DNA of 64,000 nt. Origin: a virus. Position 1 is the stretch's first letter, and the number at the start of each line of letters is the position of its first letter. Below, one piece after another: positions 10,790 through 61,541 of this stretch. Location: IMG/VR virus record IMGVR_UViG_3300022562_000702; one strand, written 5' to 3'. Under the pieces are notes generated by a model. It saw only the letters and a program-made list of their open reading frames with translations. It had not been told where the DNA came from and ran no database searches. Position numbers and translations under genes: made by a program.

Positions 10790-11539
10790 TCACTTAAGTT
10801 CGAACTCTTGCCCACGGACCACGAACCCCTGAAACCCATCTTCTGTGGGATTCTGAGGAGGATTGGGGCCATAATGGTAGAGCCACATCTTCTCTTTGTG
10901 TTTGTCAGGCAATGTCTTCAGATCATCGTAGTGAGCGTGGACACCGCTTTTGAACGGATACGTTTCGCAGTCATGGAAGACGATATCTGCCATGTCATAG
11001 AATTTCTCGATTTGCCGAGGACAGAACTGAGTGTCTGTGGTGAAGAACGTCTTGTCGTTGATGATCAGACCATAGCTGGGCACAATCCCCAGCCCGTTCA
11101 TTACATGAACTGTCTGGATCGGGCAGAATCGCACGCTCTTCCATGTGAAACAGTTGTTGATCTGAACGGTGGTGACATCGAAGAAACTGTCCAGAGTCAG
11201 CACGATGCCTTCATGCGACTGCATCCCACCCTTCAGGGAATCCCAGAGAGGCTCGACGAGACTGTCCACAATGAAGAGTTTGGGCTTCGATGCTTGGGGA
11301 TCGAAGTAGGTGCAGAATCCCAACCACTCCAAGCCGCCAATATGGTCGGCGTGCAGATGGCTGATGTAAACTGCGTCGATGTCCCTGTGAGACAGACCGA
11401 TCTCGCCGAGGCTGAACCGGGCATCGCTGCCGCAGTCAATTAGGAAGACCTTCCCTGTGTCTGGCCGGATCACGGCATTGCTTTGATAGTAGTCTTGTGT
11501 GGTGAAGGCCGATCCAACACCTGCGAATTGAAGCTTCAT
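10790..11539 (-). CDS. MBL-fold metallo-hydrolase
   Basis: HxHxDH motif (VYISHLHADHIGG). A start at 11539 (MKLQFAGVGSAF, preceded by AAAGGAGGAG) is preferred over 11650. Confidence 0.7.
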   Translation of the reverse strand: MKLQFAGVGSAFTTQDYYQSNAVIRPDTGKVFLIDCGSDARFSLGEIGLSHRDIDAVYISHLHADHIGGLEWLGFCTYFDPQASKPKLFIVDSLVEPLWDSLKGGMQSHEGIVLTLDSFFDVTTVQINNCFTWKSVRFCPIQTVHVMNGLGIVPSYGLIINDKTFFTTDTQFCPRQIEKFYDMADIVFHDCETYPFKSGVHAHYDDLKTLPDKHKEKMWLYHYGPNPPQNPTEDGFQGFVVRGQEFELK

Positions 11540-11621
11540 GGCTCCTCCTTTTTCTGGTTGAATGACTCGCACTTTGCGTGCCACTCTCAGATACCGAAGA
11601 ATACCGCAAACCGGACAAAAT

Positions 11622-12512
11622 TCACAGATCAGTTTGACTACATTGGTCATCAGTTTGATTCGGGATCAGCCCTCGAATGAGGAACTCCCGCATCTGGATC
11701 GTGCGACTATTCTGGGGCGATTGTTCCAGACAGAATAGGGCGACATCAGTTCTTCCGGCCTGATGCAAATTTTGGACCGACCGTAGAAGTTCGTCAGTCT
11801 CGGCGTGATTCACTGGCTGGAAGTTCAGGTCTGGCACCCAATTGAAGATTCGACGGGCGAGTTCTATGGTTTCTTCGTCGAAGTAGGACAGGTATTCTGG
11901 ATCGTCCTGCATGTGTTTGTAACTGTTGAGGGGATCGACCTTTCCGAAGCTGCTGCCGCCGCTATGCTTCCAGCCGTCCTGCGATCCAAATTTTTTGTCC
12001 GTAAATGCGAACCCGAGACGCTCTGATGTGTCTTGACGGTATTCGGGGTTTTTGTACCATTCGTTGAATGAGATGTTGGTGCATAGATACCCATCTAAGA
12101 ATGCTGTGGCATATTGTTTCCACAGATCGATTGCCCGACCGGAAAGGGCGTCGAGACACGAAAAACCAGACGACTTATTCGCATTGAAATTGCGAACCAT
12201 CTTCAGGCGACTTGCGAAGAGATTGAATGGATCTCTCAGCAGCAAGACTTGCCGTGGAGAATCACTCAAATGCTCTCGTAAAAAGCACAACTCGTAGTCC
12301 TCGAAACTCGCAAGAGTGAAGGGACGCTCTCCATAACCAGCACGCTCGACGTGCGTGGTTTCTGCTTGGCCGTTGTGCATGTAGCAGTTGTTGTAATGCA
12401 CCCAACAACTGGCATGGCCGAATATCCAGTCCATCACAGCGTGATTACCGCTGCGCCTTAGACCGAAGAAGGCATTCGTGTCTTTGGGGACTGGCTGTAG
12501 CTCATTTTTCAT
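11622..12512 (-). CDS. sulfotransferase-like protein
   Basis: GLRRSGNHAV resembles the PAPS 5'-PSB loop. LLLRDPFNLFASR resembles the 3'-PB RDP motif. Confidence 0.35.
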   Translation of the reverse strand: MKNELQPVPKDTNAFFGLRRSGNHAVMDWIFGHASCWVHYNNCYMHNGQAETTHVERAGYGERPFTLASFEDYELCFLREHLSDSPRQVLLLRDPFNLFASRLKMVRNFNANKSSGFSCLDALSGRAIDLWKQYATAFLDGYLCTNISFNEWYKNPEYRQDTSERLGFAFTDKKFGSQDGWKHSGGSSFGKVDPLNSYKHMQDDPEYLSYFDEETIELARRIFNWVPDLNFQPVNHAETDELLRSVQNLHQAGRTDVALFCLEQSPQNSRTIQMREFLIRGLIPNQTDDQCSQTDL

Positions 12513-12527: not shown

Positions 12528-13181
12528 ATGACCATGAAATCTTACTGGTCAATTGACGGCCCATCCAAGGGCCATAAAGGTAAGCCGTGTTACGCTTTCG
12601 TCAAATACGATGGGAGCAACATGCGGTTCGAGTGGTCGAAGAAGCGAGGCTGGTACAAATTCGGTACTCGCAAAACCATGATCGACCACACTTCGAAGAT
12701 TTTCGGTCCCTGCATTCCGCTGTTCTTGCAAAAGTACGGGGATGGCTTGGCTGATGTCTTCAAGAAGGAGAAGTATTTCCACGGCGTGCAGTCGGTGGTT
12801 GTGTTTGGCGAGTATTTCGGAGCCAAATCGTTCGCCGGGATGCACCGTCCTTGGGACGATCAGCGGGATATCGTCTTGTTTGATGTGAATGTTCACAAGA
12901 AGGGGATTTTGGGTCCAAAACAATTTTTGGACTTGTTCGGTCATCTGGGGGTGGCTGAGGTTGCTTACCAAGGCAACTTCGGCGTGGAACTCGTAGAGAA
13001 GGTTCGTAAAGAAACCCTCGACATCGAGTCCAAGTATCCAGTAAAATCGGAAATCCCCGAAGGCGTTGTCTGCAAAGGCAGCAGCGGCCACGATCTGTGG
13101 ATGTGCAAGATCAAGACCGAGCGATACAAAGCCAAGCTCAAGGAAGAATATGAAGCCGACTGGGAGAAATACTGGGAATGA
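12528..13181 (+). CDS. minimal covalent nucleotidyltransferase of the RNA/DNA ligase superfamily (RNA-ligase-like)
   Basis: Motif I is FVKYDGSN (KxDG). Motif III is VFGEYFG, motif IV is LFDVNV and motif V is EGVVCKG. 217 aa. Confidence 0.5.
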   Translation: MTMKSYWSIDGPSKGHKGKPCYAFVKYDGSNMRFEWSKKRGWYKFGTRKTMIDHTSKIFGPCIPLFLQKYGDGLADVFKKEKYFHGVQSVVVFGEYFGAKSFAGMHRPWDDQRDIVLFDVNVHKKGILGPKQFLDLFGHLGVAEVAYQGNFGVELVEKVRKETLDIESKYPVKSEIPEGVVCKGSSGHDLWMCKIKTERYKAKLKEEYEADWEKYWE

Positions 13182-24200: not shown

Positions 24201-24761
24201 TTGGCAAGCGAATATCTGAACAACAAGAACTTCGAAGCGATCATCCAGTCGTTTCAATACCACAAGCGAGAGAAGTCTCGCTACGAATTGATCCTGAAAG
24301 ATTTTGCAGAGACCCACCAACGCCGCCTTAAGAAATACAAAGATGATCTGAGGAAAGCCCAGCTTGAGCAAGCTTTGGGAGACTACCAAGAGTCGCTCTC
24401 AAACTTTAAGGGATTCCAAGATCAGTTGGCCTATGCGTTCTACTTGCTTTCTGAGAACATCGCCAACTACGCCAAGTTCAGCGGAATCGATGTAGACGAC
24501 GCCGTACAAGAGGGCGTCCTTATTTGCTTTGAGAAGATCGACCGATTTGATCCTCGAAAGGGCAAAGCGTTCAACTACATGACGACTTGCATCTTAAACC
24601 ATTACCGGCAGTTGTACCGAAGTGCTCGAAATTACAATGAATTGAAGAAGCGATATCACGTCTTTCTACAAGACAAGTTCGAAAGCGTGGTTTTCAGAAA
24701 TGGCAAAGAACATTCGGGTCAATTCAAAAGTTATGTTGACCAAACTTCTTCTTCGTGGTAA
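24201..24761 (+). CDS. small sigma factor containing only sigma70 region 2 (T4 gp55-like late sigma factor)
   Basis: DDAVQEGVLICFEKIDRFDPRKGKAFNYMTTCILNHYRQ fits the sigma70 region 2.1-2.3 pattern. 186 aa with no region 4. Confidence 0.7.
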   Translation: MASEYLNNKNFEAIIQSFQYHKREKSRYELILKDFAETHQRRLKKYKDDLRKAQLEQALGDYQESLSNFKGFQDQLAYAFYLLSENIANYAKFSGIDVDDAVQEGVLICFEKIDRFDPRKGKAFNYMTTCILNHYRQLYRSARNYNELKKRYHVFLQDKFESVVFRNGKEHSGQFKSYVDQTSSSW

Positions 24762-24767
24762 ACTTCT

Positions 24768-25055
24768 ATGGATATGACAAATACCAGCGTAGCCAATCCG
24801 GTACACGCAATCGAAATGCAAGAAATTATACAGAAGCTCAAGGACAACGGGTATGGGGAGCTTGTCACCTGTCTCTTGGAAAACGAGACTGACTGCTACA
24901 CCAAACGGGGTCGCCTTAATAAGAGTGCCACTTCTAGGAAGATGGGCTGGAAGTCCAAGCAACTAGAAGATGCTCTTCAGGGCATGAGAGAGATTCTCGG
25001 CAACGAGTTCTGTGATTTCATAGAAGAACAAGAAGAGGATGGCGACGAGGATTAG
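24768..25055 (+). CDS. hypothetical acidic protein, possible late-transcription co-factor (gp33-like?)
   Basis: 95 aa with a strongly acidic C-terminus EEQEEDGDED. It lies immediately downstream of the sigma gene. The gene ends with TAG. Confidence 0.3.
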   Translation: MDMTNTSVANPVHAIEMQEIIQKLKDNGYGELVTCLLENETDCYTKRGRLNKSATSRKMGWKSKQLEDALQGMREILGNEFCDFIEEQEEDGDED

Positions 25056-25687: not shown

Positions 25688-26228
25688 TTACGAACCACAC
25701 GGCGTGCAGCAGTTCTCGATAGCAAAACTCGGGCAAATAGGTGTGTATCTGACACTGGAGTAACGGAGTGTCAAATCAATCGTGGCTTCGTCCGAAGTTG
25801 CATAATCCAAGTCACCAAAATTAACCGAGGTCGGCCACAGGTCCGCAAGCTCCCATACTTCGAGGAGCCCACCGCAACCATCGTACATTCTAAGGATTCC
25901 CACCGCTGCGTAATTATTCCTCGATGCCCCCATTGGAAGCTCTGTTTGGCTTGCTGAATGATACGTTGGTTGGGTCGATGGCATCGATGTAAGTTACATT
26001 GATGGTTTCCCATGCGGCCTTCCCCGGAATCCAAGTCTTGGCGTTCAAGAAGTTGATTTCCGTTTCTTCGATACTGAGATTTGGGCGAGCAGCCACCTTG
26101 ACAAAGTGCGGCGGCACTGACCGGCTGGAATCGCCACAAATCCCCTGTACCTCGAAGGTAAATCGGAACTTCCTCTTGAAAATGAGGTTTCTGAAGCCCA
26201 AAGGCCCAATACCCATATTTTGTGCCAT
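25688..26228 (-). pseudogene. tail tube protein paralog interrupted by a frameshift (two overlapping ORF halves, 25914..26228 and 25688..25984)
   Basis: The N-terminal half aligns with paralogs up to TYID. The C-terminal half (RMYDGCGGLLEVWELADLWPTSVNFGDLDYATSDEATIDLTLRY) continues the alignment in another frame. A short direct repeat, tcgatggcatcgatg, lies at the junction. Confidence 0.5.
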
Positions 26229-47545: not shown

Positions 47546-48160
47546 TTAGCCTGTCTCCGTTTCATGATATCCGTAGAGTCCTCCGTTCTTGATGTAATCC
47601 CACACCTTGGAGTCAAGGTGCGCCGCAGCGAAGTCGTTGCGGCCTTCCCGGATCGCTGTACGAATATCGGTGGAACTGGCGTCGTTCTCGAAATCGAAGA
47701 CCTGATGTGGCTCGTGATTGAACCAGTCTGCCGTTTCGGGACAGCCATCCCGCCTGAGAACGATGAAGGGGAACTCTTGGATCAACAGATTTCCGTGAAT
47801 CCACTTCGTTTCGATGATGTTGGCATTGTCCATGCCAATGACGATGTGGAACTTGACATCTGGATACTCTTGCACGAGTTGCTGCATGGTCGAATACATC
47901 GACCCGTCGTGCCGGTGTGCGATCTCCCAGTCGAAGGCTCGCATGATCTCCCAGTCTTCACATGCCAAGGTGAGCATATTCCAACGATGGGATGATTCGA
48001 TGAGTTCAGAGTCCTTGCTGAAGAGGTGGCGATAGCAAGGCATGATCCATGTGGGGAGGCCGGTCTTTTGAAAGACCAAGCGTGCCATCAGTTCGTGGTG
48101 CAGTCCCGTGGGGTTGCATCCGCTGCCGAAGATCGCCGCCTCACCCTGTCGGATTCTCAT
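47546..48160 (-). CDS. nadD: nicotinate/nicotinamide mononucleotide adenylyltransferase
   Basis: FGSGCNPTGLHH (GxFxPxHxxH nucleotidyltransferase motif) and the SSTDIR motif (ISSTxIR of NadD). Confidence 0.6.
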   Translation of the reverse strand: MRIRQGEAAIFGSGCNPTGLHHELMARLVFQKTGLPTWIMPCYRHLFSKDSELIESSHRWNMLTLACEDWEIMRAFDWEIAHRHDGSMYSTMQQLVQEYPDVKFHIVIGMDNANIIETKWIHGNLLIQEFPFIVLRRDGCPETADWFNHEPHQVFDFENDASSTDIRTAIREGRNDFAAAHLDSKVWDYIKNGGLYGYHETETG

Positions 48161-49172
48161 GGATCACTCCTACTGCCACATCGTCTCCATTGAGCCAGTT
48201 GCGGCGGCGGAAAGTTCCCGCCTTGTCTTGTCGAAAGACCCAGTTCGATTGCAGTCTGGCGAAACCGGGCCGCACCGTCACAAAGTCCAGTAAGACACGC
48301 AACACGTCCAGCACACAGACAGGCTCGTTGTATTTGCGTCGAGGCGACTTCACGGGAATGTAAAACGCCTCGGGGCCATCCGAGCAGATGAACGTGAATT
48401 CGTAGTCATCTGCTGGGAAGACAAACTCATTGTATGGCTTGATTACTGAGAAGTTTTGCTCTTGGGTCGAAAATGTTACATGATTCGACCAAGCTCCCAT
48501 ACGCTCCTTAGAAGACGGCGGCTGGTCGGCCCATTCTGGAAATTCCATCTCCGGGCTGCGGATGTTCCCGAAGTAGGTGTGAATCTTGTATGTCTGCCCG
48601 AACTGCTCAATCCATTTCGGTGTTTCGCCGAACATCTGGTACTTGAGGTAGTATGGCCCACCGGGAAACTCAACGACATGAATCTTCCAGCGGCCATCAC
48701 GACGCCTTCCGCCGACAACACCATCGCCAACCAACAGGGCTCTATGGGAGTCGCCGACTTTGCGAAGAGTCCCCAGCGTGGCCGTCAGGCAAGCATCAGG
48801 AAGATTGGGGAATGCTCTCTGTTGGGTGCGGGACGTTGCCGACACGCCTTGCAGGAAGGCTTCTACGTTGTCTTGATAGATGTGCTCTTCTGCGGCCTTC
48901 GTCAAGATGCGTGACCCGAAGTCGGTGTGAATGCGAGGGCCACCAGCATTGGAACAACCATCTGAGATGATCGCATAGTCGCCACCATGAACAGCATAAT
49001 CTTCGCACACTTCGTGCGTTGTGCCTTGAACAAAAAACGAGTCTGTCAACATGGTAGTTTCTCCTCGACATACGGGGCAGAGCCAATCGCTCTCCCCGCT
49101 GTCCGTTCCATCAGAGATGAGTTTGAGATCGCTGAACGTCAGTCCGCAGGAATCGCACTGATCAGTCTTCAT
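48141..49172 (-). CDS. hypothetical protein with N-terminal zinc ribbon; possible PP2C-type phosphatase
   Basis: CDSCG...CPVCRG zinc ribbon. ISDGCSNAGG and KVGDSHRAL resemble PP2C DGHGG and GDSRA motifs. Confidence 0.3.
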   Translation of the reverse strand: MKTDQCDSCGLTFSDLKLISDGTDSGESDWLCPVCRGETTMLTDSFFVQGTTHEVCEDYAVHGGDYAIISDGCSNAGGPRIHTDFGSRILTKAAEEHIYQDNVEAFLQGVSATSRTQQRAFPNLPDACLTATLGTLRKVGDSHRALLVGDGVVGGRRRDGRWKIHVVEFPGGPYYLKYQMFGETPKWIEQFGQTYKIHTYFGNIRSPEMEFPEWADQPPSSKERMGAWSNHVTFSTQEQNFSVIKPYNEFVFPADDYEFTFICSDGPEAFYIPVKSPRRKYNEPVCVLDVLRVLLDFVTVRPGFARLQSNWVFRQDKAGTFRRRNWLNGDDVAVGVIHENPTG

Positions 49173-51234
49173 GGTCGTCCAGTGTCCTTAGCCAAGCAGC
49201 CGGGGACGCATCAGACGGCATTCTCCAGTCGCCACGAGGCGACAGGCTGACTGTTCCGACTTTTGGTCCATCAGGCACATCGTTCCGCTTGTATTGCTGA
49301 GCAAAGGCACGTTTGATGTTGACTCGCAACCAATGCTCCAGAGTGTGTTCGTCGTACTCACCTTCCCATCCCTCGGCTTGGAGACCGAGGTAGAGAATCT
49401 TCGCTGGGCTGAATCCGTTGCGGACGAAGTAGAACATCACGAAGTCATGGATCTCATAAGGTCCGATGGTCTCTTCGGTCGATTGTTCGATTTCGCCATC
49501 CGTACCGGCAGGCAGCAATTCGGGAGAGATTGTGGTGTGGGCGATGTCCATCAGCGTGACATATACTGGGTCGCCATCGAATCCCTGATGCGGCGGTTCG
49601 CCACCCTCTGTCTCGGCGATGTATTCGACGAGGAACTTCACCAGCGTCTTTGGCACAGAGCAGTTCACGTTGTACATGGATTGGTGGTCGCCGTTGAATG
49701 TACACCAACCCAACCACAATTCCGACATGTCGCCGGTGCCCAAAACGAAACCGTGGGACATCAGCACCAGCGTCCGTTGTCTTGCTTGCACATTCTCGAA
49801 GACGAGATCCCCTTTGTCCTTCTGCTCTTGCGAGAGATGGGCTAGAGCATCCACGAGGCATTCGACAGTGAAGTTTTCGAGATCGACGCTGGCATCAAAC
49901 ATGCCCATGCCGAACGGGTCGTGTCCAATGTCTTTGAAGACCTGCAAGCACGCCGGGCGAATATCGATTTCCTTCTGGGAGATTTCCAGAACATCCATCA
50001 GTCGCTTGGCGTTCTCCAGAGTCTTGTTGGTTGTGCCGAAGCCGGGCATGGTGATGCCCAGAATGTTCTTGCGAGGCAGGCCAAGCATGTCGAACGTCTT
50101 CACGGCAACCATGAGAGACAACGTGGAATCGAGTCCGCCCGAGATGCCAATTACAACTTTTGGATCAGGGCCGAGTTGTTCGAGCCGTTTCGCCAGAGCA
50201 CAAGTCTGGATGCCGAAGATCTCTGCACAACGAGAGTGCAACGTCTTCGGATCTTTGGGCACAAATGGCCGGGCATCGATCTTTCGCAACAATGGCGAAT
50301 CCATGTGATTCAACTTGAAGCTGACGTTCCGCTGTGAGTGCCCGGCCAGATATCGACGACCCTCGTTATAGCTGGTTGTGGTTCGTCGCTCTGTGTGGAG
50401 CTTCTCAACATCCACATCGGTTGAGGTCCAATAAGAGCCTCGATTTGGTGTCTTGCCGTTGCCTACTCGGTCGCTCTCGACCAACATGTGCCCGCCTTCT
50501 GCGATCAAACAGTGCCCGCCGAAGACAAGATCAGAGGTGCTCTCTGTGGGGCCGCAGCTTGCGTAGGCATAGGCGGCAACGCAACGGCCCGACTGCCCAA
50601 TCACCAGATTGCGGCGATAGTCGGGCTTGCCGATGGTTTCGTTGGACGCCGATGGATTCAAGAGAATGTTCGCCCCGGCGATGGCACTGAAGCTGGATGG
50701 CGGGATTGGCATCCAGATCGCTTCGCAGATCTCGATAGAGACGACGGCTTCGTGGGCATCCCCGACCGGGGCACGGAACAAAAGGTCTGTCCCAAACGGG
50801 ACGCTCCACTCTCCGAACTGAACACGAGTGTTTCGGTCGTTACGAGCCGAAGCAAACCAACGACCTTCGTAGAACTCGTTGTAAGTCGGGATGAATTCTT
50901 TCGGAACAAGGCCGATCACCCTGCCATCATGAAGCACGGCGGCACAGTTGTAGAGGGCGTTCTCGACTCGGAAGGGAAGTCCAACAACCACCAGTTCGTT
51001 GTTGACGTGTGACGCCAATTCGATGACGTTCTCGACGGCGGAATCGAGCAGTGCCTTCTGGTGAAACAGCTTGCCGCATGTGTAACCGGTGATGTTCAGT
51101 TCCGGGAACAGCACAATATCAGATTGAAGCTGCTCCAAGATGCGTGCCACTTCCGCCGTATTGGCGTCAGGATCGGCAACGACGATCTTGTTTGAGACAG
51201 TGGTTACTCGGACAAAGCTGTGGTTGGAGTTCAT
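49162..51234 (-). CDS. nadE: glutamine-dependent NAD+ synthetase (nitrilase domain + PP-loop synthetase)
   Basis: N-terminal carbon-nitrogen hydrolase domain (IVLFPELNITGY). C-terminal GISGGLDSTLSL PP-loop. A start at 51234 is preferred. Confidence 0.8.
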   Translation of the reverse strand: MNSNHSFVRVTTVSNKIVVADPDANTAEVARILEQLQSDIVLFPELNITGYTCGKLFHQKALLDSAVENVIELASHVNNELVVVGLPFRVENALYNCAAVLHDGRVIGLVPKEFIPTYNEFYEGRWFASARNDRNTRVQFGEWSVPFGTDLLFRAPVGDAHEAVVSIEICEAIWMPIPPSSFSAIAGANILLNPSASNETIGKPDYRRNLVIGQSGRCVAAYAYASCGPTESTSDLVFGGHCLIAEGGHMLVESDRVGNGKTPNRGSYWTSTDVDVEKLHTERRTTTSYNEGRRYLAGHSQRNVSFKLNHMDSPLLRKIDARPFVPKDPKTLHSRCAEIFGIQTCALAKRLEQLGPDPKVVIGISGGLDSTLSLMVAVKTFDMLGLPRKNILGITMPGFGTTNKTLENAKRLMDVLEISQKEIDIRPACLQVFKDIGHDPFGMGMFDASVDLENFTVECLVDALAHLSQEQKDKGDLVFENVQARQRTLVLMSHGFVLGTGDMSELWLGWCTFNGDHQSMYNVNCSVPKTLVKFLVEYIAETEGGEPPHQGFDGDPVYVTLMDIAHTTISPELLPAGTDGEIEQSTEETIGPYEIHDFVMFYFVRNGFSPAKILYLGLQAEGWEGEYDEHTLEHWLRVNIKRAFAQQYKRNDVPDGPKVGTVSLSPRGDWRMPSDASPAAWLRTLDDHED

Positions 51235-51247
51235 TGGGGTTCCTCTC

Positions 51248-51796
51248 TTAACCGTATGTGGGTTCGCCAAGATCGTATTCTGGTTCGTCGTCGTCGTCGT
51301 CGTCGTGATGGCCGAGTTCGCCGAACCGTTGTTCGAGTTCGGCACGCAATTCAGCAGGCAGGTCTTCCGGGTTGATCGGGATCATTCCGCCCCGACCTTC
51401 ACGAATGGCTTGTTGGATATGAGGCGGCAGCATGTGGAAGGGTGGAATCCCCATCACCGCTGTCATGATTCGTCCCCAGCGACCGGTCTGCGTGTGGATG
51501 GTGTCGAGGTCATCGACACGCACATAGAACTCGATCTCGCTTGCTTCCCATTCGTCGGTTGCCAACATCACCTTGAACGTCACAAGAGGGAAGACCCCTT
51601 CAATGACTTTTAGGTTGCTGGTAATCAGGCCGTCAAACCCCCGTCCCTTGATCCGCTGCGAAGTGCGACCATCTTCGAACATATCAACGGCGTTGTACAT
51701 GAGGATGTCACAGACTCGTGGAGTCAATGGCTTCCCAGTGTTGATCATGCAGTAAATGCCACCATGTCGTTCGGGGTCAGGGGTGAAGCCGCTCAT
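51248..51796 (-). CDS. hypothetical protein with poly-Asp C-terminus
   Basis: ORF between nadE and the Nudix gene. Internal start chosen to avoid overlap. Confidence 0.4.
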   Translation of the reverse strand: MSGFTPDPERHGGIYCMINTGKPLTPRVCDILMYNAVDMFEDGRTSQRIKGRGFDGLITSNLKVIEGVFPLVTFKVMLATDEWEASEIEFYVRVDDLDTIHTQTGRWGRIMTAVMGIPPFHMLPPHIQQAIREGRGGMIPINPEDLPAELRAELEQRFGELGHHDDDDDDEPEYDLGEPTYG

Positions 51797-52311
51797 TAGT
51801 CTCGTCTCCAAAGCTGTTTGAGGTAAAACAACACCTGATGGATCGGAATCCATGTCCGTTGATCTTCCGATTGTACCAGTGCTGCTAACTCATCCAAGGA
51901 AACCCATCGCCATCCTTTGCATTTCTTGGGCTCAAGTGGTTCGATCATTTCTTCGTCACCCTTCTTCTTCAGGGTGCCGCCGTGAAGGTAGTCGGCGATC
52001 AGGTAACATGTCACATAGATCGCCGAACCATCTGTTGATTTCTTCAGAATGTCATACGTCGTGAACAGGTCTTGGCGGTAGTGGTCGGGACTGAAGACCC
52101 GACACACCATGCCCGTCTCTTCTAAGACTTCACGTTCGCCGCAGTGAGCGAGGGTCGCATCAGTTGGATCGATATGCCCACCGGGAAAGGCATAGAGGCC
52201 AGCACCATGACTGCCTTGTCGCTCTCCAATCAAAACCTTCTGGCCTTTGACGACAATGACGCCGACACCGGCTTTGACTTGTGGTTCGACTTCTTTCTTC
52301 TTCTTCGTCAT
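51796..52311 (-). CDS. NUDIX hydrolase (candidate ADP-ribose or NADH pyrophosphatase)
   Basis: Nudix box GGHIDPTDATLAHCGEREVLEETGM. Confidence 0.8.
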   Translation of the reverse strand: MTKKKKEVEPQVKAGVGVIVVKGQKVLIGERQGSHGAGLYAFPGGHIDPTDATLAHCGEREVLEETGMVCRVFSPDHYRQDLFTTYDILKKSTDGSAIYVTCYLIADYLHGGTLKKKGDEEMIEPLEPKKCKGWRWVSLDELAALVQSEDQRTWIPIHQVLFYLKQLWRRD

Positions 52312-52613
52312 GGCAGCACCAATCTAATCAAGCTGAAAGCGACAATGTAGACGATTACAGGGAACAGAACGTGCATCGCCACAACGTGTTTGATTCCGGG
52401 GAATTGTCGAGCCCAATCTTCGTCGCCGTTCACGGCCCGCAGTCGTCTCTGCCAACCTCCGGGCGAGTTGAACCTGATGTCGTCCCACAGACACCGGAAA
52501 GGCAGTTCCCAGCCGCCCATGCCGCCGTTGATGAAGCATTCCAGTCCGTAGACCAGATACCACACTCCGAAGGCGATGATTGCTGCAAAGGCGACTGACA
52601 TTGTTACCACCAT
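52308..52613 (-). CDS. small membrane protein
   Basis: Two hydrophobic helices. Confidence 0.3.
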   Translation of the reverse strand: MVVTMSVAFAAIIAFGVWYLVYGLECFINGGMGGWELPFRCLWDDIRFNSPGGWQRRLRAVNGDEDWARQFPGIKHVVAMHVLFPVIVYIVAFSLIRLVLP

Positions 52614-52807
52614 AAAAGTTTCCAGAGGAATTTGATCGCAACGAGCATAGCCAACAAGACGATTACGACCAGCAGGCAACCGAAGCAACCGCTACCATCG
52701 CCGTCGCCGTCGTCATCTTTGTCTTCCTGCGCCGGTGGCGGTGGGGCCATCGTGGCAGTGCTCTTTCCATTTCCGTTGAATCGGTTTAGTCGAGGGTCAG
52801 GCTGCAT
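52604..52807 (-). CDS. small membrane protein
   Basis: C-terminal hydrophobic helix CLLVVIVLLAMLVAIKFLW. Confidence 0.3.
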   Translation of the reverse strand: MQPDPRLNRFNGNGKSTATMAPPPPAQEDKDDDGDGDGSGCFGCLLVVIVLLAMLVAIKFLWKLLWW

Positions 52808-54035
52808 GGTCTAACGGTGTCCCAAAGAAAGTCCAGTTCGCCACTCGTCGTGCATCGGGATCGCCGATTTGTTTGCCGGGCACATCGCTGAGCTTCACCA
52901 CCGGCACGCCCATGACCGACCACAATTTGATGACCATGTTGAGTGCCTTGCACTCGGGGAAGTCATTGGTCAGATGTGTGCCGATGCCGAAGGCTGTTTT
53001 GATCTTGCCTCGGAAATACTTCTCGATTTTCGCCGCCAACTCAGAGTCCAATCCGTCGCTGAACACAATTGTCTTCCCAAGCGGATCGATTCTCTGGCTG
53101 ATGTAGTGGTCAATGACCTGATCGCCGAACTTGTATGGGTCAGCGGAATCATGTCGCACACCGTCGAAAGCCCGTGCCAGCATTCCGACGAAATCGCCGA
53201 AGAATGCTTTGGTTCCAAAGGTGTCGGTCAGTGCGATACCCACTTCGCCGTTGAATGTTTCCATCCAGTCTTCGAGGACATAGCGGTTGGCATGACGCAA
53301 ACCACGCAGAACCGAATAGCCCATGAACATCTCGTGTGCCATCGTGCCGATGGGTTTCAGGCCATGTTTCATCGCCATGTGAACATTGCTGACGCCGACA
53401 AACTTGGGGTGGCACTCCTTGAGGGTGCGAACCACCAAATCCTGAACGTCATAGCTGTGTCGCCGACGCAGGCCAAACTCTGCCAAGATGCACGCTTGGA
53501 GGATCTCAGCTTTTGCCTTTGTCCGCTCCATGTAGCGGGTGGCCCAGTCGCCTTGTCGCCAGCTTGTCTCGCAGTGCTCGAAGAACAGTTCTGAGATCAA
53601 AGCCATGACGGGGACTTCCCACATCATGGCTGTTTCCCATGGACCTTTGAAGAAAGCCTCAAGCTCGCCTTCTGGTGTCAGTCGTGCTTCGACCTGTGAG
53701 GGGTCGTAACGAAAGTTCTTGATGAACTGGAGGAAGTGTGGACGGAGCCACGGCATTTCCTGATGGATGAAGTCCACTTCATCGTCACGAGTTCGCAGTT
53801 CTCCCATCGCCCGGATTTCCCGGTTGAAGGCATTCATGAATCCTTCGTTGAACTTCCCTTCGGGCCGACGATTGTTGAACCGGAACTCGACGGGCACTCC
53901 CGGATGGTGGCGAAGGATATTCGCACACATGTTGTACTTGTAAACATCTTGTTCAAGATTTGACCGGATAATGCTCATCATGTCTCCATCCCAAAATTTG
54001 TACTGAAGCGTCCCCGGAGGGACTCGAACCCTCAC
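52797..54035 (-). CDS. pncB: nicotinate phosphoribosyltransferase
   Basis: QDVYKYNM (PncB TDAYK..M motif) and GPWETAMMWEVPVMALISE (PncB GPWRE..LWEVPLLAVISE). 412 aa. Confidence 0.75.
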   Translation of the reverse strand: MRVRVPPGTLQYKFWDGDMMSIIRSNLEQDVYKYNMCANILRHHPGVPVEFRFNNRRPEGKFNEGFMNAFNREIRAMGELRTRDDEVDFIHQEMPWLRPHFLQFIKNFRYDPSQVEARLTPEGELEAFFKGPWETAMMWEVPVMALISELFFEHCETSWRQGDWATRYMERTKAKAEILQACILAEFGLRRRHSYDVQDLVVRTLKECHPKFVGVSNVHMAMKHGLKPIGTMAHEMFMGYSVLRGLRHANRYVLEDWMETFNGEVGIALTDTFGTKAFFGDFVGMLARAFDGVRHDSADPYKFGDQVIDHYISQRIDPLGKTIVFSDGLDSELAAKIEKYFRGKIKTAFGIGTHLTNDFPECKALNMVIKLWSVMGVPVVKLSDVPGKQIGDPDARRVANWTFFGTPLDHAA

Positions 54036-54083
54036 TCAGAGATTTAGAATCCCTTGCTCTAACCAATTGAGGCATACGGGGAC
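54009..54083 (-). tRNA. tRNA with anticodon CUA (amber-suppressor type); D-arm slightly non-canonical
   Basis: Folds by hand into a cloverleaf. Acceptor stem GTCCCCG/CGGGGAC, with U8. T-arm GAGGG-TTCGAGT-CCCTC. Anticodon stem AGGGA/TCTCT with loop TTCTAAA. D-arm GC(C)TC-AATTGGTTA-GAGC with one bulged C. No encoded CCA. Confidence 0.5.
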
Positions 54084-54086
54084 GTT

Positions 54087-54110
54087 GGTGGGGGCTGTTG
54101 CCAACCCCCG
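54087..54110 (-). terminator. GC hairpin (GGGGG...CCCCC) between the upstream gene and the tRNA
   Basis: Inverted repeat read in the sequence. Confidence 0.3.
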
Positions 54111-54115
54111 ACCTA

Positions 54116-54844
54116 TCAAAACGTCAGCGATTGCGAAGGGCCACCGCTGCCGAGGGCTTGCGACTGACTCTGAACGCTGGCACTGATGAAGTTCGCCAGC
54201 TTGGCGAGCGTCTTCTCGTTGGCGTCCGAGAGCGGAACGTACTGCGTGTACCCCACGGCCTGTGCGTGCCGCTTGAGTTCGGCTTGCACTCGGGCATCGT
54301 CGTTGACGCCGATGAGGATCGACATCACCGATTCGAGGGCTTCGCAGGACACCGCATCAGCCATCGCCTGAACGGCGGCGTCTTCCACGATGTTCTGTCC
54401 CGGAGTGTAGTGGGCACCGTCTGTGATTCCGTAGATGATCCCGTTGACCATATACCGCTTCGCAGCTTGCTGCTCGGCGTAGTCGATCATCGCACGGAGC
54501 ACGTTCTCTTCGCACCCGTACAAGTTGGTGCAACCACCGCCAGCCCAGCAACCGTCGTAGTCGTCTTCGTGACAATCGACTTGCGGCTTGTAGCCGTGGA
54601 ACTCACGGACCTGATCGTCGAAGTGGACTTGCCGATAGAGCAGTTTGTCGGCGACCGGCGAGTGTCGGAGGGACTTGACCACTTCCTTGATGCAGAGTTC
54701 CATCTGGCGAGCGTATCTGCGGGTTGAACCGCTCTCGTCGAAGAACGCCGTGGCGATGGTGTTGTCCACGTTGGTCAGGTCGTCAATGGGCGTCCCGGTG
54801 TAACCGAATCCGCCGCCCGGAATTGTGAAACTTTGCGAAGTCAT
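54116..54844 (-). CDS. von Willebrand factor A (vWA)-like domain protein
   Basis: MIDAS-like FFDESGST (DxSxS) and a later GITDGAHY. Confidence 0.4.
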   Translation of the reverse strand: MTSQSFTIPGGGFGYTGTPIDDLTNVDNTIATAFFDESGSTRRYARQMELCIKEVVKSLRHSPVADKLLYRQVHFDDQVREFHGYKPQVDCHEDDYDGCWAGGGCTNLYGCEENVLRAMIDYAEQQAAKRYMVNGIIYGITDGAHYTPGQNIVEDAAVQAMADAVSCEALESVMSILIGVNDDARVQAELKRHAQAVGYTQYVPLSDANEKTLAKLANFISASVQSQSQALGSGGPSQSLTF

Positions 54845-56567: not shown

Positions 56568-56819
56568 TTAGTCGGAATCAACGTAATCAATCCCGAATGG
56601 ATCGTCGTCGCCGTCCTTCCACCAGTCGGCGGGGTCACGGTTTTTTCGTTTGCGTTCTTTTTGTTCTTCCTTGAGTTCTCTGAAAGCCGCTCGAAGAGCA
56701 CATGCGTTGACGACGTGTCCCAACAGTAAGCCGATGCAAATTCCAATGATCAAAAACAAAAATCCGTCAGACATCCTTGTCCCCTTCTTTCCTATAGAGC
56801 TTCCGGCACTCCTTTGCAA
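56568..56819 (-). CDS. small membrane protein
   Basis: Hydrophobic segment FLFLIIGICIGLLLGHVV. Confidence 0.3.
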   Translation of the reverse strand: MQRSAGSSIGKKGTRMSDGFLFLIIGICIGLLLGHVVNACALRAAFRELKEEQKERKRKNRDPADWWKDGDDDPFGIDYVDSD

Positions 56820-57634
56820 AGGTCGCTGGTGATGACAACAAGTGGCTTCTTGCCTTCGAAGATCACCTCTTCTCGGTTGTGAATGCGAGACATTGGAACA
56901 AAGTCCTCTTCAACCACTGCTGTTCGCTTGATGGTCAAATTGGGGTTTTGGTGAGCGTGGTGCTTCGGCGGAAGAGCAGAAAGTTCTTCTGTCGTGAACG
57001 CACGCTCGACATCCCGGCGTCTCACATAAGTTCCTCGCTTGAAGAAGCGGGGATACTCTGCCCACTTGACTCCTTTTTGGAACAGCAGTTCGTGCAAAGC
57101 CGACGTGTCTTTGCCGTGCAGTTCTTCATGTGAGTAGTAGGCCCTCGCCGCCATTTGCAATGAGTTTCGAGTGGCGTCGTTCTCTCGCCAGATGAAGTAG
57201 TTACACGCTTCATACAAGACAGGCACTTCCCAGACACGGTTGTCGAAGAGAGCCATCTTGTCGGCGTGACTGGGGATATAGTCTGGCAACAGCTTGTTGA
57301 AGAAGTAGGTTGCCAGCGATCCCACGACAGAACACATCTTCGACAACTTGCCTCCGAAGAAGATTTCTGAGTCGGGATCTTCAGTCAGCCAGACCAACGA
57401 AATTTCATCGCTTTGCGTGTATCCGCAGCGAGCGTTCGTCTCTTCAACAAGAAACTTGGTCGTCTCGATCATCAGTCGAGACAGACGGTCATCGTAAGGT
57501 CGCTCCAGACCTTTCGTGAAGCTGTGAAAGGCTCGTCCGTCCACCCGTGCCAACACGGGGACCATCGGCATCATTTCATGGGCGTACCGTTTCTCGTACC
57601 ATTTCATCCGGTCGCCAAGCGAAGTTGTGTCCAT
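56792..57634 (-). CDS. Thg1-like protein (tRNA-His guanylyltransferase family 3'-5' nucleotidyltransferase)
   Basis: N-terminal MKWYEKRYAHEMMPMVPVLARVDGRAFHSFTKGLERPYDDRLSRLMIETTKFLV...GYTQSDEISLVWL. This fits the Thg1 pattern KFEYV...RIDGxxFxxFS...xxSDExS. Confidence 0.6.
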   Translation of the reverse strand: MDTTSLGDRMKWYEKRYAHEMMPMVPVLARVDGRAFHSFTKGLERPYDDRLSRLMIETTKFLVEETNARCGYTQSDEISLVWLTEDPDSEIFFGGKLSKMCSVVGSLATYFFNKLLPDYIPSHADKMALFDNRVWEVPVLYEACNYFIWRENDATRNSLQMAARAYYSHEELHGKDTSALHELLFQKGVKWAEYPRFFKRGTYVRRRDVERAFTTEELSALPPKHHAHQNPNLTIKRTAVVEEDFVPMSRIHNREEVIFEGKKPLVVITSDLCKGVPEAL

Positions 57635-61163: not shown

Positions 61164-61541
61164 TCACTTCTTCTTCGACTTGGACTTGGCCGTTGTCGGC
61201 TTGGAAGTCTTTGAAGTCTTGGCCTTGGTTGTGGTCGGCTTGGAAGTCTTCGTGGCCGTAGTAGTCGGCTTGATGCTCTTCTTTGCCTTGGCGGTTGTCG
61301 TCTTTGACTTGACGCTCTTCTTGGCAGCCTGCTTGACAGGTTCGTCGTAGCTGACTTCCAAACCGAGGCGTTGCCCGAAGGCACGAGCCGACGACTTGAG
61401 GGCACTTGTTGTCGGAAAGAGGGTCGTGCCATCCTTGCGTGTCAGCTTGGTTGGCTTTGCTCCCTGCAATGCGACTGTCCCTTCGAAGCGATCACCTTGT
61501 TCGGTGGTACGCTGCTTCACTGTTACTGTTACTGTGCTCAT
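61164..61541 (-). CDS. lysine-rich histone H1-like DNA-binding protein
   Basis: C-terminal KPTTT/KTSK/AKKS repeats (KAKKSIKPTTTATKTSKPTTTKAKTSKTSKPTTAKSKSKKK). Confidence 0.45.
   Translation of the reverse strand: MSTVTVTVKQRTTEQGDRFEGTVALQGAKPTKLTRKDGTTLFPTTSALKSSARAFGQRLGLEVSYDEPVKQAAKKSVKSKTTTAKAKKSIKPTTTATKTSKPTTTKAKTSKTSKPTTAKSKSKKK

Follow-up and report, generated by a model that had tools for sequence, protein, structure and literature searches.

The stretch of DNA analysed here, a 64,000-nucleotide (nt) piece of the IMG/VR virus record IMGVR_UViG_3300022562_000702 (hereafter the window), carries on its minus strand a transfer RNA (tRNA) gene with the anticodon CUA, i.e., one that would read the amber codon UAG. 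The gene sits within a 134-nt gap of a long minus-strand gene block (59563 to 42349), where it is preceded by the gene of a 242-amino-acid (aa) hypothetical protein and followed by pncB, the start codon of which lies 27 nt downstream of the tRNA 3' end, with GGAG preceding the ATG. When the whole window was searched, ARAGORN reported exactly one tRNA (54008-54083, minus strand, anticodon cta), and the Rfam tRNA family RF00005 matched positions 54011-54081 of the same strand with 38.8 bits (E = 1.2e-4), a score above the gathering score of the family, which is 29. The original prediction, made from the sequence alone, of a minus-strand cloverleaf tRNA beside pncB was hence upheld by both programs, and neither of them gave any other anticodon than the CUA that had been read at positions 34-36 within the loop TTCTAAA. 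The coordinates of the gene, its parts and its neighbours are collected in Table 1.

Table 1. The CUA tRNA gene and neighbouring features of the minus-strand gene block (positions are those of the window)
Feature	Position	Strand	Basis or remarks
tRNA gene, 75 nt, G1 to discriminator G73, anticodon CUA	54009..54083	-	ARAGORN, Rfam, covariation among orthologues
Anticodon C34-U35-A36	54045..54047	-	sequence and ARAGORN drawing; invariant in five orthologues
Anticodon loop of 7 nt, TTCTAAA (RNA UUCUAAA), U33 present, A36-A37-A38	54043-54049	-	ARAGORN, sequence
Irregular D arm	54056..54076	-	connector TAT (54076-54074), 5' strand GCCTC with bulged C (54073-54069)
D arm, remainder: loop AATTGGTTA, 3' strand GAGC	54068-54060 (loop), 54059-54056 (3' strand)	-	sequence, ARAGORN drawing
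Hairpin of 8 base pairs with GCAA tetraloop, between upstream stop codon and tRNA	54090..54109	-	read from sequence
Upstream gene, 242-aa hypothetical protein, kept in relatives	54116..54844	-	ends TGA (54118-54116), then in-frame TAG
pncB (nicotinate phosphoribosyltransferase)	52797..53981	-	Pfam PF04095, PF17767
NUDIX gene	51796-52311	-	NAD+ operon
NadE, glutamine-dependent, with CN-hydrolase domain	49162-51345	-	NAD+ operon
PP2C-like gene	48141-49172	-	located among the NAD+ genes
Cytidylyltransferase-like (NadD-type) gene	47546-48160	-	NAD+ operon

Structure of the tRNA

Most of the molecule is that of a regular cloverleaf. The acceptor stem (GTCCCCG/CGGGGAC) pairs at 7 of 7 positions and is thus perfect, where it had previously been described as near-perfect, and the anticodon stem (AGGGA/TCTCT), which follows an A at position 26, comprises 5 base pairs (bp) and closes a 7-nt loop with U33 in place, leaving the register of the window copy unambiguous. 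The variable loop is 4 nt long (GAGT), the D loop has 9 nt and contains the canonical G18-G19, and the T arm (GAGGG-TTCGAGT-CCCTC) joins a 5-bp stem to a canonical T loop of the TTCRANY type, in agreement with the T arm predicted earlier and with the ARAGORN drawing. The discriminator base G73 at 54009 is followed by CTT, meaning that CCA is not encoded. The exact sequence of the window tRNA was found to be absent from IMG/VR.

The D arm departs from this regularity. One bulged C had been noticed there, and while the irregularity as such was confirmed, its extent turned out to be larger, since as compared to four orthologues the window copy holds two additional nucleotides, TA[T] and GC[C]TC (additional nucleotides in brackets). 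The arm may be drawn either with a 3-nt connector and one bulged C or, as in the ARAGORN drawing, with a 4-nt connector and a 3-bp stem. Locus L001, which comes from a separate assembly and differs from the window by 7 single-nucleotide polymorphisms (SNPs) in 11.9 kb, carries an identical tRNA, D arm included, and for this reason the insertions are no assembly accident. A covariance score had been named as the check on this arm, and by that measure the window tRNA stays above the Rfam threshold for tRNAs.

Conservation among related phages

Relatives were found by a metagenome scan with pncB and subsequent look-ups of pncB homologues; their pncB genes are 77-85% identical to that of the window and the gene order is the same. 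One of them, L129 (ENA ERZ26692762 ctg84252), is a syntenic relative located on a contig of 693,098 bp, and because of this the window probably belongs to a megaphage lineage with a genome size close to the top of the range known for phages. The CUA tRNA lies just upstream of pncB in four other distinct relatives (L026, L128, L129 and L134), whereby the tRNA of L026 recurs identically in a second sample (L130) and that of L134 in L135. CCA is encoded by none of the orthologues, and among those scored with Rfam (L134 was not) 55.6 bits were obtained for L129, 48.5 for L026 and 34.2 for L128.

An alignment of the five sequences, from which the two extra nucleotides of the window copy had been removed, revealed standard pairs in 96.2% of the stem cells and changes on both sides of the pair in 13 of 21 stem pairs. 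The observed covariation values were reached by none of 500 shuffles, and sliding the 3' partners by 1-3 columns lets the pairing fall to 35-57%. Invariant in all five orthologues are U33, the anticodon C34-U35-A36, G73, the pairs G1-C72, C4-G69 and C5-G68 and the T loop, while position 37 is an A in the window copy and a G in L128 and L129. Compensatory changes in the stems together with an invariant anticodon mean a selected tRNA fold and not a chance fold; judged by this alignment, the CUA tRNA is under selection both for the fold and for this particular anticodon, and conservation of CUA alongside compensatory stem changes argues for an anticodon that functions as such. That related phages keep the tRNA therefore implies that it matters to them.

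Similar CUA tRNAs were found at 18 IMG/VR loci, which are short. A separate observation concerns L156 (IMGVR_UViG_3300020172_001601, 340 kb), which holds at 2887-2960 a CUA tRNA of canonical form; in its D arm this tRNA agrees fully with L129. There is no pncB within the 3.9-kb L156 locus, and its tRNA may belong to the same tRNA family, carried in this case by another large phage.

Use of TAG as a stop codon

Stop codon usage was read from about 75 kb of this genome; for the clade, about 200 kb of sequence was covered. Among 83 open reading frames (ORFs) that were called greedily in the window, TAG is the stop codon of 15, TGA of 32 and TAA of 36, and in the non-redundant clade loci TAG ends 36 of 205 ORFs. 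The earlier statement that UAG serves as a stop, exemplified by the ORFs 290-988 and 24768-25055, is borne out by both of these ORFs ending with TAG; the accompanying remark that TAG is the rarest of the three stops holds insofar as TAG is the least used, with a share of 18%, however, it is not rare. Where the window genes of a 582-aa protein and of a Thg1-like protein end with TAG, the orthologues have TAA or TGA at the aligned stop, and conversely the TGA stop of the PP2C-like gene aligns with a TAG in L129. The late structural genes of the window, i.e., those for sheath, tube, gp15-like protein, baseplate hub and a 1150-aa protein, contain no in-frame TAG, and the coding density of greedy ORFs in the window amounts to 94.9% with the standard code as compared to 93.7% with TAG as a sense codon. 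None of the marks of genetic code 15 was thus encountered in the approximately 200 kb read, given that conserved genes have no in-frame TAG, coding density is not gained and TAG is not depleted. Among the ORFs scanned and the precomputed lists, no Pfam match named a release factor, a synthetase or a CCA-adding enzyme.

TAG is an ordinary stop codon in these genomes. The idea of a TAG reassignment, as put forward in the original prediction, therefore finds no sign in the window or in the about 200 kb of related DNA, where TAG stops make up 18% and are interchangeable with the other stops, and where neither a conserved in-frame TAG nor a read-through extension was found. Read-through late in infection and a host with partial TAG reassignment, by which the prediction had sought to account for the tRNA, are speculation. 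As a practical consequence for gene callers, a Sup-CTA tRNA alone is no reason to switch this genome to code 15.

Suggested function

Based on the conserved fold and anticodon on the one hand and the use of TAG on the other, the gene is considered, with moderate confidence, to be a functional amber-suppressor-type (Sup-CUA) phage tRNA gene in very large marine myoviruses of standard code. The sequence of events that would follow from this assumes that the tRNA is co-transcribed with the minus-strand gene block, as neither a promoter nor a terminator that would convincingly be its own was recognised, and that host RNase P and 3'-end enzymes release it from the transcript. A CCA-adding enzyme would be required to supply CCA, this not being encoded, and a host synthetase would charge the product. 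The charged tRNA may then compete with release factor 1 at UAG, so that a fraction of the ribosomes reads through. Suppression is probably partial, or aimed outside the window at other genome regions, host messages or rival-phage messages, because about 18% of the phage genes end with TAG without back-up stops. The window copy, with its two lineage-specific D-arm nucleotides, may be a weakened version. A more specific proposal, which is regarded as rather unlikely, is that selection keeps the CUA tRNA in this standard-code lineage of about 0.7 Mb for a use other than recoding, be it the gating of a few UAG genes or the reading through of UAG stops of the host or of rival phages.

Opposing evidence and alternative explanations

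A number of observations weigh against a working suppressor. The window copy does not possess a canonical D arm (2-nt connector, uninterrupted 3-4-bp stem), which L026, L128, L129 and L134 do, and its Rfam score is only 38.8 bits as compared to 55.6 for its best relative L129, a reduction that results from the two additional D-arm nucleotides. In L026 (87-159) and L128 (9899-9971) the anticodon stem shows non-Watson-Crick oppositions at 28-42 and 29-41, and in both of them U14 replaces A14. The tRNA is precisely missing at the site in L002, L027, L029 and L030, and in L028 other small ORFs occupy the tRNA site without any tRNA being present; its absence from the site in several close relatives therefore marks it as dispensable. 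A read-through screen of the 15 TAG-ended window ORFs identified no extension that fills non-coding DNA, and back-up stops after TAG were not found to be enriched, the extension after TAG being no shorter than after the other stops (median 18 codons, as compared to 20.5 for TAA and 23.5 for TGA). Conserved in-frame TAG codons were not found by a tblastn screen of the clade loci, which returned only antisense shadow-ORF artefacts; a TAG at window position 61348 that aligned with Tyr was rejected as belonging to the antisense frame of a Lys-rich gene. Finally, as the genome may be close to 0.7 Mb in size, the sequence read amounts to no more than about 10% of it.

Part of this evidence would equally be explained by the main rival, held to be possible though not likely, which regards the window tRNA as a weakened or decaying copy of a once-used, dispensable suppressor that is heading to loss via D-arm insertions. 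The two additional nucleotides, confined to the window copy, and the low score would then be signs of decay, while the clean losses and the replacement in L028 would show where such decay leads. Consistent with this, the gap between the 242-aa gene and pncB (window 53982-54115; also L002, L026, L028, L128, L129 and L134) is a hot spot of insertion and deletion, the contents of which vary from the tRNA alone over a small ORF plus tRNA, or the tRNA plus an HNH ORF, to a Zn-ribbon ORF plus a small ORF without tRNA (the Zn-ribbon ORF being that of L002) and a LexA-like ORF; in L134 an HNH endonuclease ORF has inserted between tRNA and pncB, overlapping the pncB start. Against decay speaks, however, that the remainder of the window copy is intact, namely the acceptor stem, the 5-bp anticodon and T stems, the T loop, G18-G19 and A36-A37-A38, that its score still exceeds the Rfam threshold and that two near-identical strains retain the same sequence. 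Moreover, one bulge and one connector nucleotide need not abolish function.

A partly recoded phage, in which TAG would be a sense codon in a gene block outside the window (e.g., of lysis or late genes) that is served by the tRNA, is distinctly unlikely. This notion draws on the conserved anticodon, on known recoded phages, in which standard-code DNA surrounds the suppressor tRNA and the recoding is concentrated in late genes (bioRxiv 10.1101/2021.08.26.457843), and on the modest amount of sequence read when set against the 693-kb contig of the syntenic relative. It is opposed by the late structural genes of the window being devoid of in-frame TAG, by TAG stops that are not depleted (18%) and that are interchangeable with TAA and TGA among orthologues, by a GC content of about 51% in place of the low GC content tied to recoding (bioRxiv 10.1101/2021.08.26.457843) and by the Pfam matches of the scanned ORFs and precomputed lists, none of which names a release factor.

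More doubtful again is a tRNA-shaped RNA that does not decode but acts as a processing site ahead of the pncB-NAD operon or as a decoy for anticodon nucleases. In its favour are the position directly 5' of pncB, which is constant save where the HNH ORF has inserted, the RNA-repair-type genes of the genome (Thg1-like, RNA ligase) and the oddities of L026 and L128 (mismatched anticodon stem, U14). Yet a processing signal has no need for an invariant U33-CUA loop, a conserved discriminator and a perfect acceptor stem, the Thg1-like gene and the tRNA do not strictly co-occur (L027, L029, L134), and no anticodon nuclease is known to target a CUA tRNA.

A pyrrolysine tRNA, to which the ARAGORN label "tRNA-Pyl" points that is printed for any CUA anticodon, can be dismissed, since in tRNA-Pyl, which goes together with pylS/pylBCD in the genome, the anticodon stem comprises 6 bp, the variable loop 3 nt and the connector one nucleotide, and the D loop is small and lacks GG, whereas the window tRNA has a 5-bp anticodon stem, a 4-nt variable loop, a 9-nt D loop with G18-G19 and the T loop TTCGAGT, and no Pfam match among the window ORFs scanned and the precomputed lists names a pyl gene.

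Amino acid and origin of the tRNA

For the functional suppressor tRNA, which is the preferred reading, sequence similarity gives a divided picture of the amino acid. BLAST against annotated phage tRNAs led from the window copy to tRNAs for Lys, Met, Trp and Arg and from L026 to tRNAs for Arg, Glu and Trp, and a nearest-neighbour test with 208 unbiased phage tRNAs, the anticodon being masked, returned a different top isotype for each orthologue. In E. coli genomes no match to the window tRNA was found. In E. coli, a CUA anticodon with its U35 tends to attract the glutaminyl- or lysyl-tRNA synthetase (GlnRS or LysRS), and G73 suits Gln better; by analogy, U35 and G73 would favour charging with Gln or else with Lys. 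The trinucleotide A36-A37-A38 of the window copy is the context of isopentenyl modification of A37, which is typical of efficient classical suppressors. In recoded phages TAG is read as Gln (bioRxiv 10.1101/2021.08.26.457843).

With respect to origin, two pattern scans of IMG/VR identified the exact acceptor stem with G73 as common to many phage tRNA-Arg genes, although both acceptor/loop search patterns were biased towards tRNA-Arg matches. A link to tRNA-Arg was also suggested by the anticodon arm of L026 and L128, for which a slipped register is the better fit, one in which 4 bp are formed, nucleotide 42 is bulged out and the loop has 8 nt. This register explains all three substitutions between L026 and L128 (U-A to C-G at 28-41, the bulge being free to vary), it is energetically better for L128, and its loop displays U33-UCU-A37 as does tRNA-Arg(UCU). 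Hence there are hints, from sequence comparison, that the suppressor may be derived from a phage tRNA-Arg(UCU) in which the loop register moved by one base, and not from an anticodon altered by point mutation; the slipped register may be a trace of this origin or a coincidence. The origin from tRNA-Arg(UCU) was not adopted, as the Arg determinants A20 and C35 are absent and the scan patterns were biased, and because of this bias it is kept as a lead only. A descent from tRNA-Glu, an idea prompted by the resemblance to the E. coli tRNA-Glu acceptor (GUCCCCx...xGGGGACG) and by U11-A24 and U13-G22 in L026, was rejected, given that neither L129 nor L134 has these pairs in common with L026 and the exact acceptor is found almost only in phage tRNA-Arg.

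Genomic neighbourhood

Scanning for sigma-70 promoters identified none near the tRNA, and a terminator scan yielded no tRNA-specific terminator. The GCAA-capped hairpin upstream of the tRNA was not reported by that scan either and is probably not a terminator, because no T-run follows it. In L026 and L134 a motif resembling a promoter precedes the tRNA; it was discarded, since, judged by the translation of the L002 ORF, it appears to belong to the coding region of a small conserved ORF or of what is left of one. At relaxed thresholds Rfam gave no ribozyme or other RNA family beside the tRNA.

The window is phage DNA of a T4-like myovirus that has no near relative in culture: among the products of its genes are a tail sheath, a gp15-like sheath stabiliser, gp19-like tube proteins, a baseplate hub and a gp13-like protein, its GC content is about 51%, and no close relative was found among 50,697 GenBank phage records, to which the tail sheath is at most 38.5% identical with partial coverage. 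Downstream of the tRNA, a complete Preiss-Handler set for NAD+ salvage occupies one operon (47546-53981, minus strand), which is also kept in L128, L129, L002 and L137 and plausibly serves as a counter to NAD-depleting defences of the host. Among cellular pncB genes (L132/L133; ENA ERZ27288191, Logan ERR4691846), the nearest is 59% identical and its surroundings, which include RND efflux, MFS and glycoside hydrolase genes, are those of a bacterial chromosome, and the next one, 57% identical, is labelled as a Deltaproteobacteria metagenome-assembled genome; as a weak hint, these cellular relatives point to the source of the gene or to the phage host.

Three genes upstream of the tRNA, a Thg1-like 3'-5' nucleotidyltransferase is encoded (PF04446, E = 6e-28; 56792-57634, minus strand), and an RNA ligase (PF09414) is encoded at 12528-13181 of the plus strand, both of them constituting a tRNA/RNA repair-type toolkit of the phage. 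A tie between the Thg1-like gene and the CUA tRNA was considered and rejected, since L027 and L029 possess only the former and L134 only the latter. Elsewhere in the window, a metallo-beta-lactamase-fold protein (10790-11650, minus strand; precomputed match PF23023, anti-Pycsar Apyc1) is a possible cyclic-nucleotide-degrading anti-defence gene, and a small protein with a precomputed Sigma70_r2 match that is encoded amid the tail genes (24201-24761, plus strand) is a possible late sigma factor of the phage. When compared with the window, the near-identical JGI contig L023 contains an insertion of 41 nt at 25946/25947, and in the assembly of JGI sample 3300015263 there are two contigs with an overlap of about 1.1 kb (window ~52105-53266), one of them ending inside pncB; together with the SNPs of L001 this points to co-existing strains.

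Comparison with known systems

The E. coli suppressors supE, supF and su7 and the T4 suppressor psu1+ resemble the window tRNA in that a CUA anticodon competes with release factor 1 and in the sequence A36-A37-A38. They are, however, mutants obtained in the laboratory that differ by one base from a sense tRNA whose identity is known, whereas the window tRNA is a natural gene kept over long divergence. With the phage tRNA-Arg(UCU) genes of IMG/VR it has in common the acceptor GTCCCCG/CGGGGAC, G73, the lack of an encoded CCA and the loop motif TTCTAA, but while tRNA-Arg(UCU) reads this motif as U34-C35-U36-A37 and has A20, the window tRNA reads it one base off as C34-U35-A36 and has U at position 20.

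TAG-recoded phages (crAss-like, Lak, jumbo and other code-15 phages) are well-known carriers of Sup-CTA tRNAs, and their structural genes contain in-frame TAG (bioRxiv 10.1101/2021.08.26.457843). As in these phages, a class I phage tRNA with a CUA anticodon lies here among standard-code genes and is presumably charged by the host. In the TAG-recoded phages, however, TAG occurs in frame within structural and lysis genes and is depleted as a stop, and the GC content is low, in contrast to the present phage with TAG ending 18% of its ORFs, structural genes without in-frame TAG and about 51% GC. Suppressor tRNAs are also on record for standard-code phages, namely a TGA suppressor in a standard-code relative of the recoded Agate phages and the Sup-UUA of phage G (bioRxiv 10.1101/2021.08.26.457843; PMC12484599). 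These share with the window tRNA the setting of a suppressor under code 11, and phage G is a giant myovirus as well; they differ in anticodon and lineage, and for the clade described here covariation is seen clade-wide at one syntenic site and the stop codon in question is not depleted.

Phage suppressor tRNAs of this kind are hence already known, and what is modestly unusual is the conservation in a clade of marine megaphages that have about 51% GC and in which TAG is not depleted. In low-GC gut phages with depleted TAG, a suppressor tRNA is commonly regarded as indicating stop-codon recoding or as preceding it. In the present clade roughly one gene in five still ends with TAG despite the conserved suppressor, and a conserved suppressor combined with undepleted TAG does not fit a path that leads from a rare stop to a suppressor and from there to recoding. 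If the tRNA is active, the phage would tolerate or exploit partial read-through of its own and of host amber stops and would offer a natural setting in which to study the role of a suppressor prior to recoding or in its absence.

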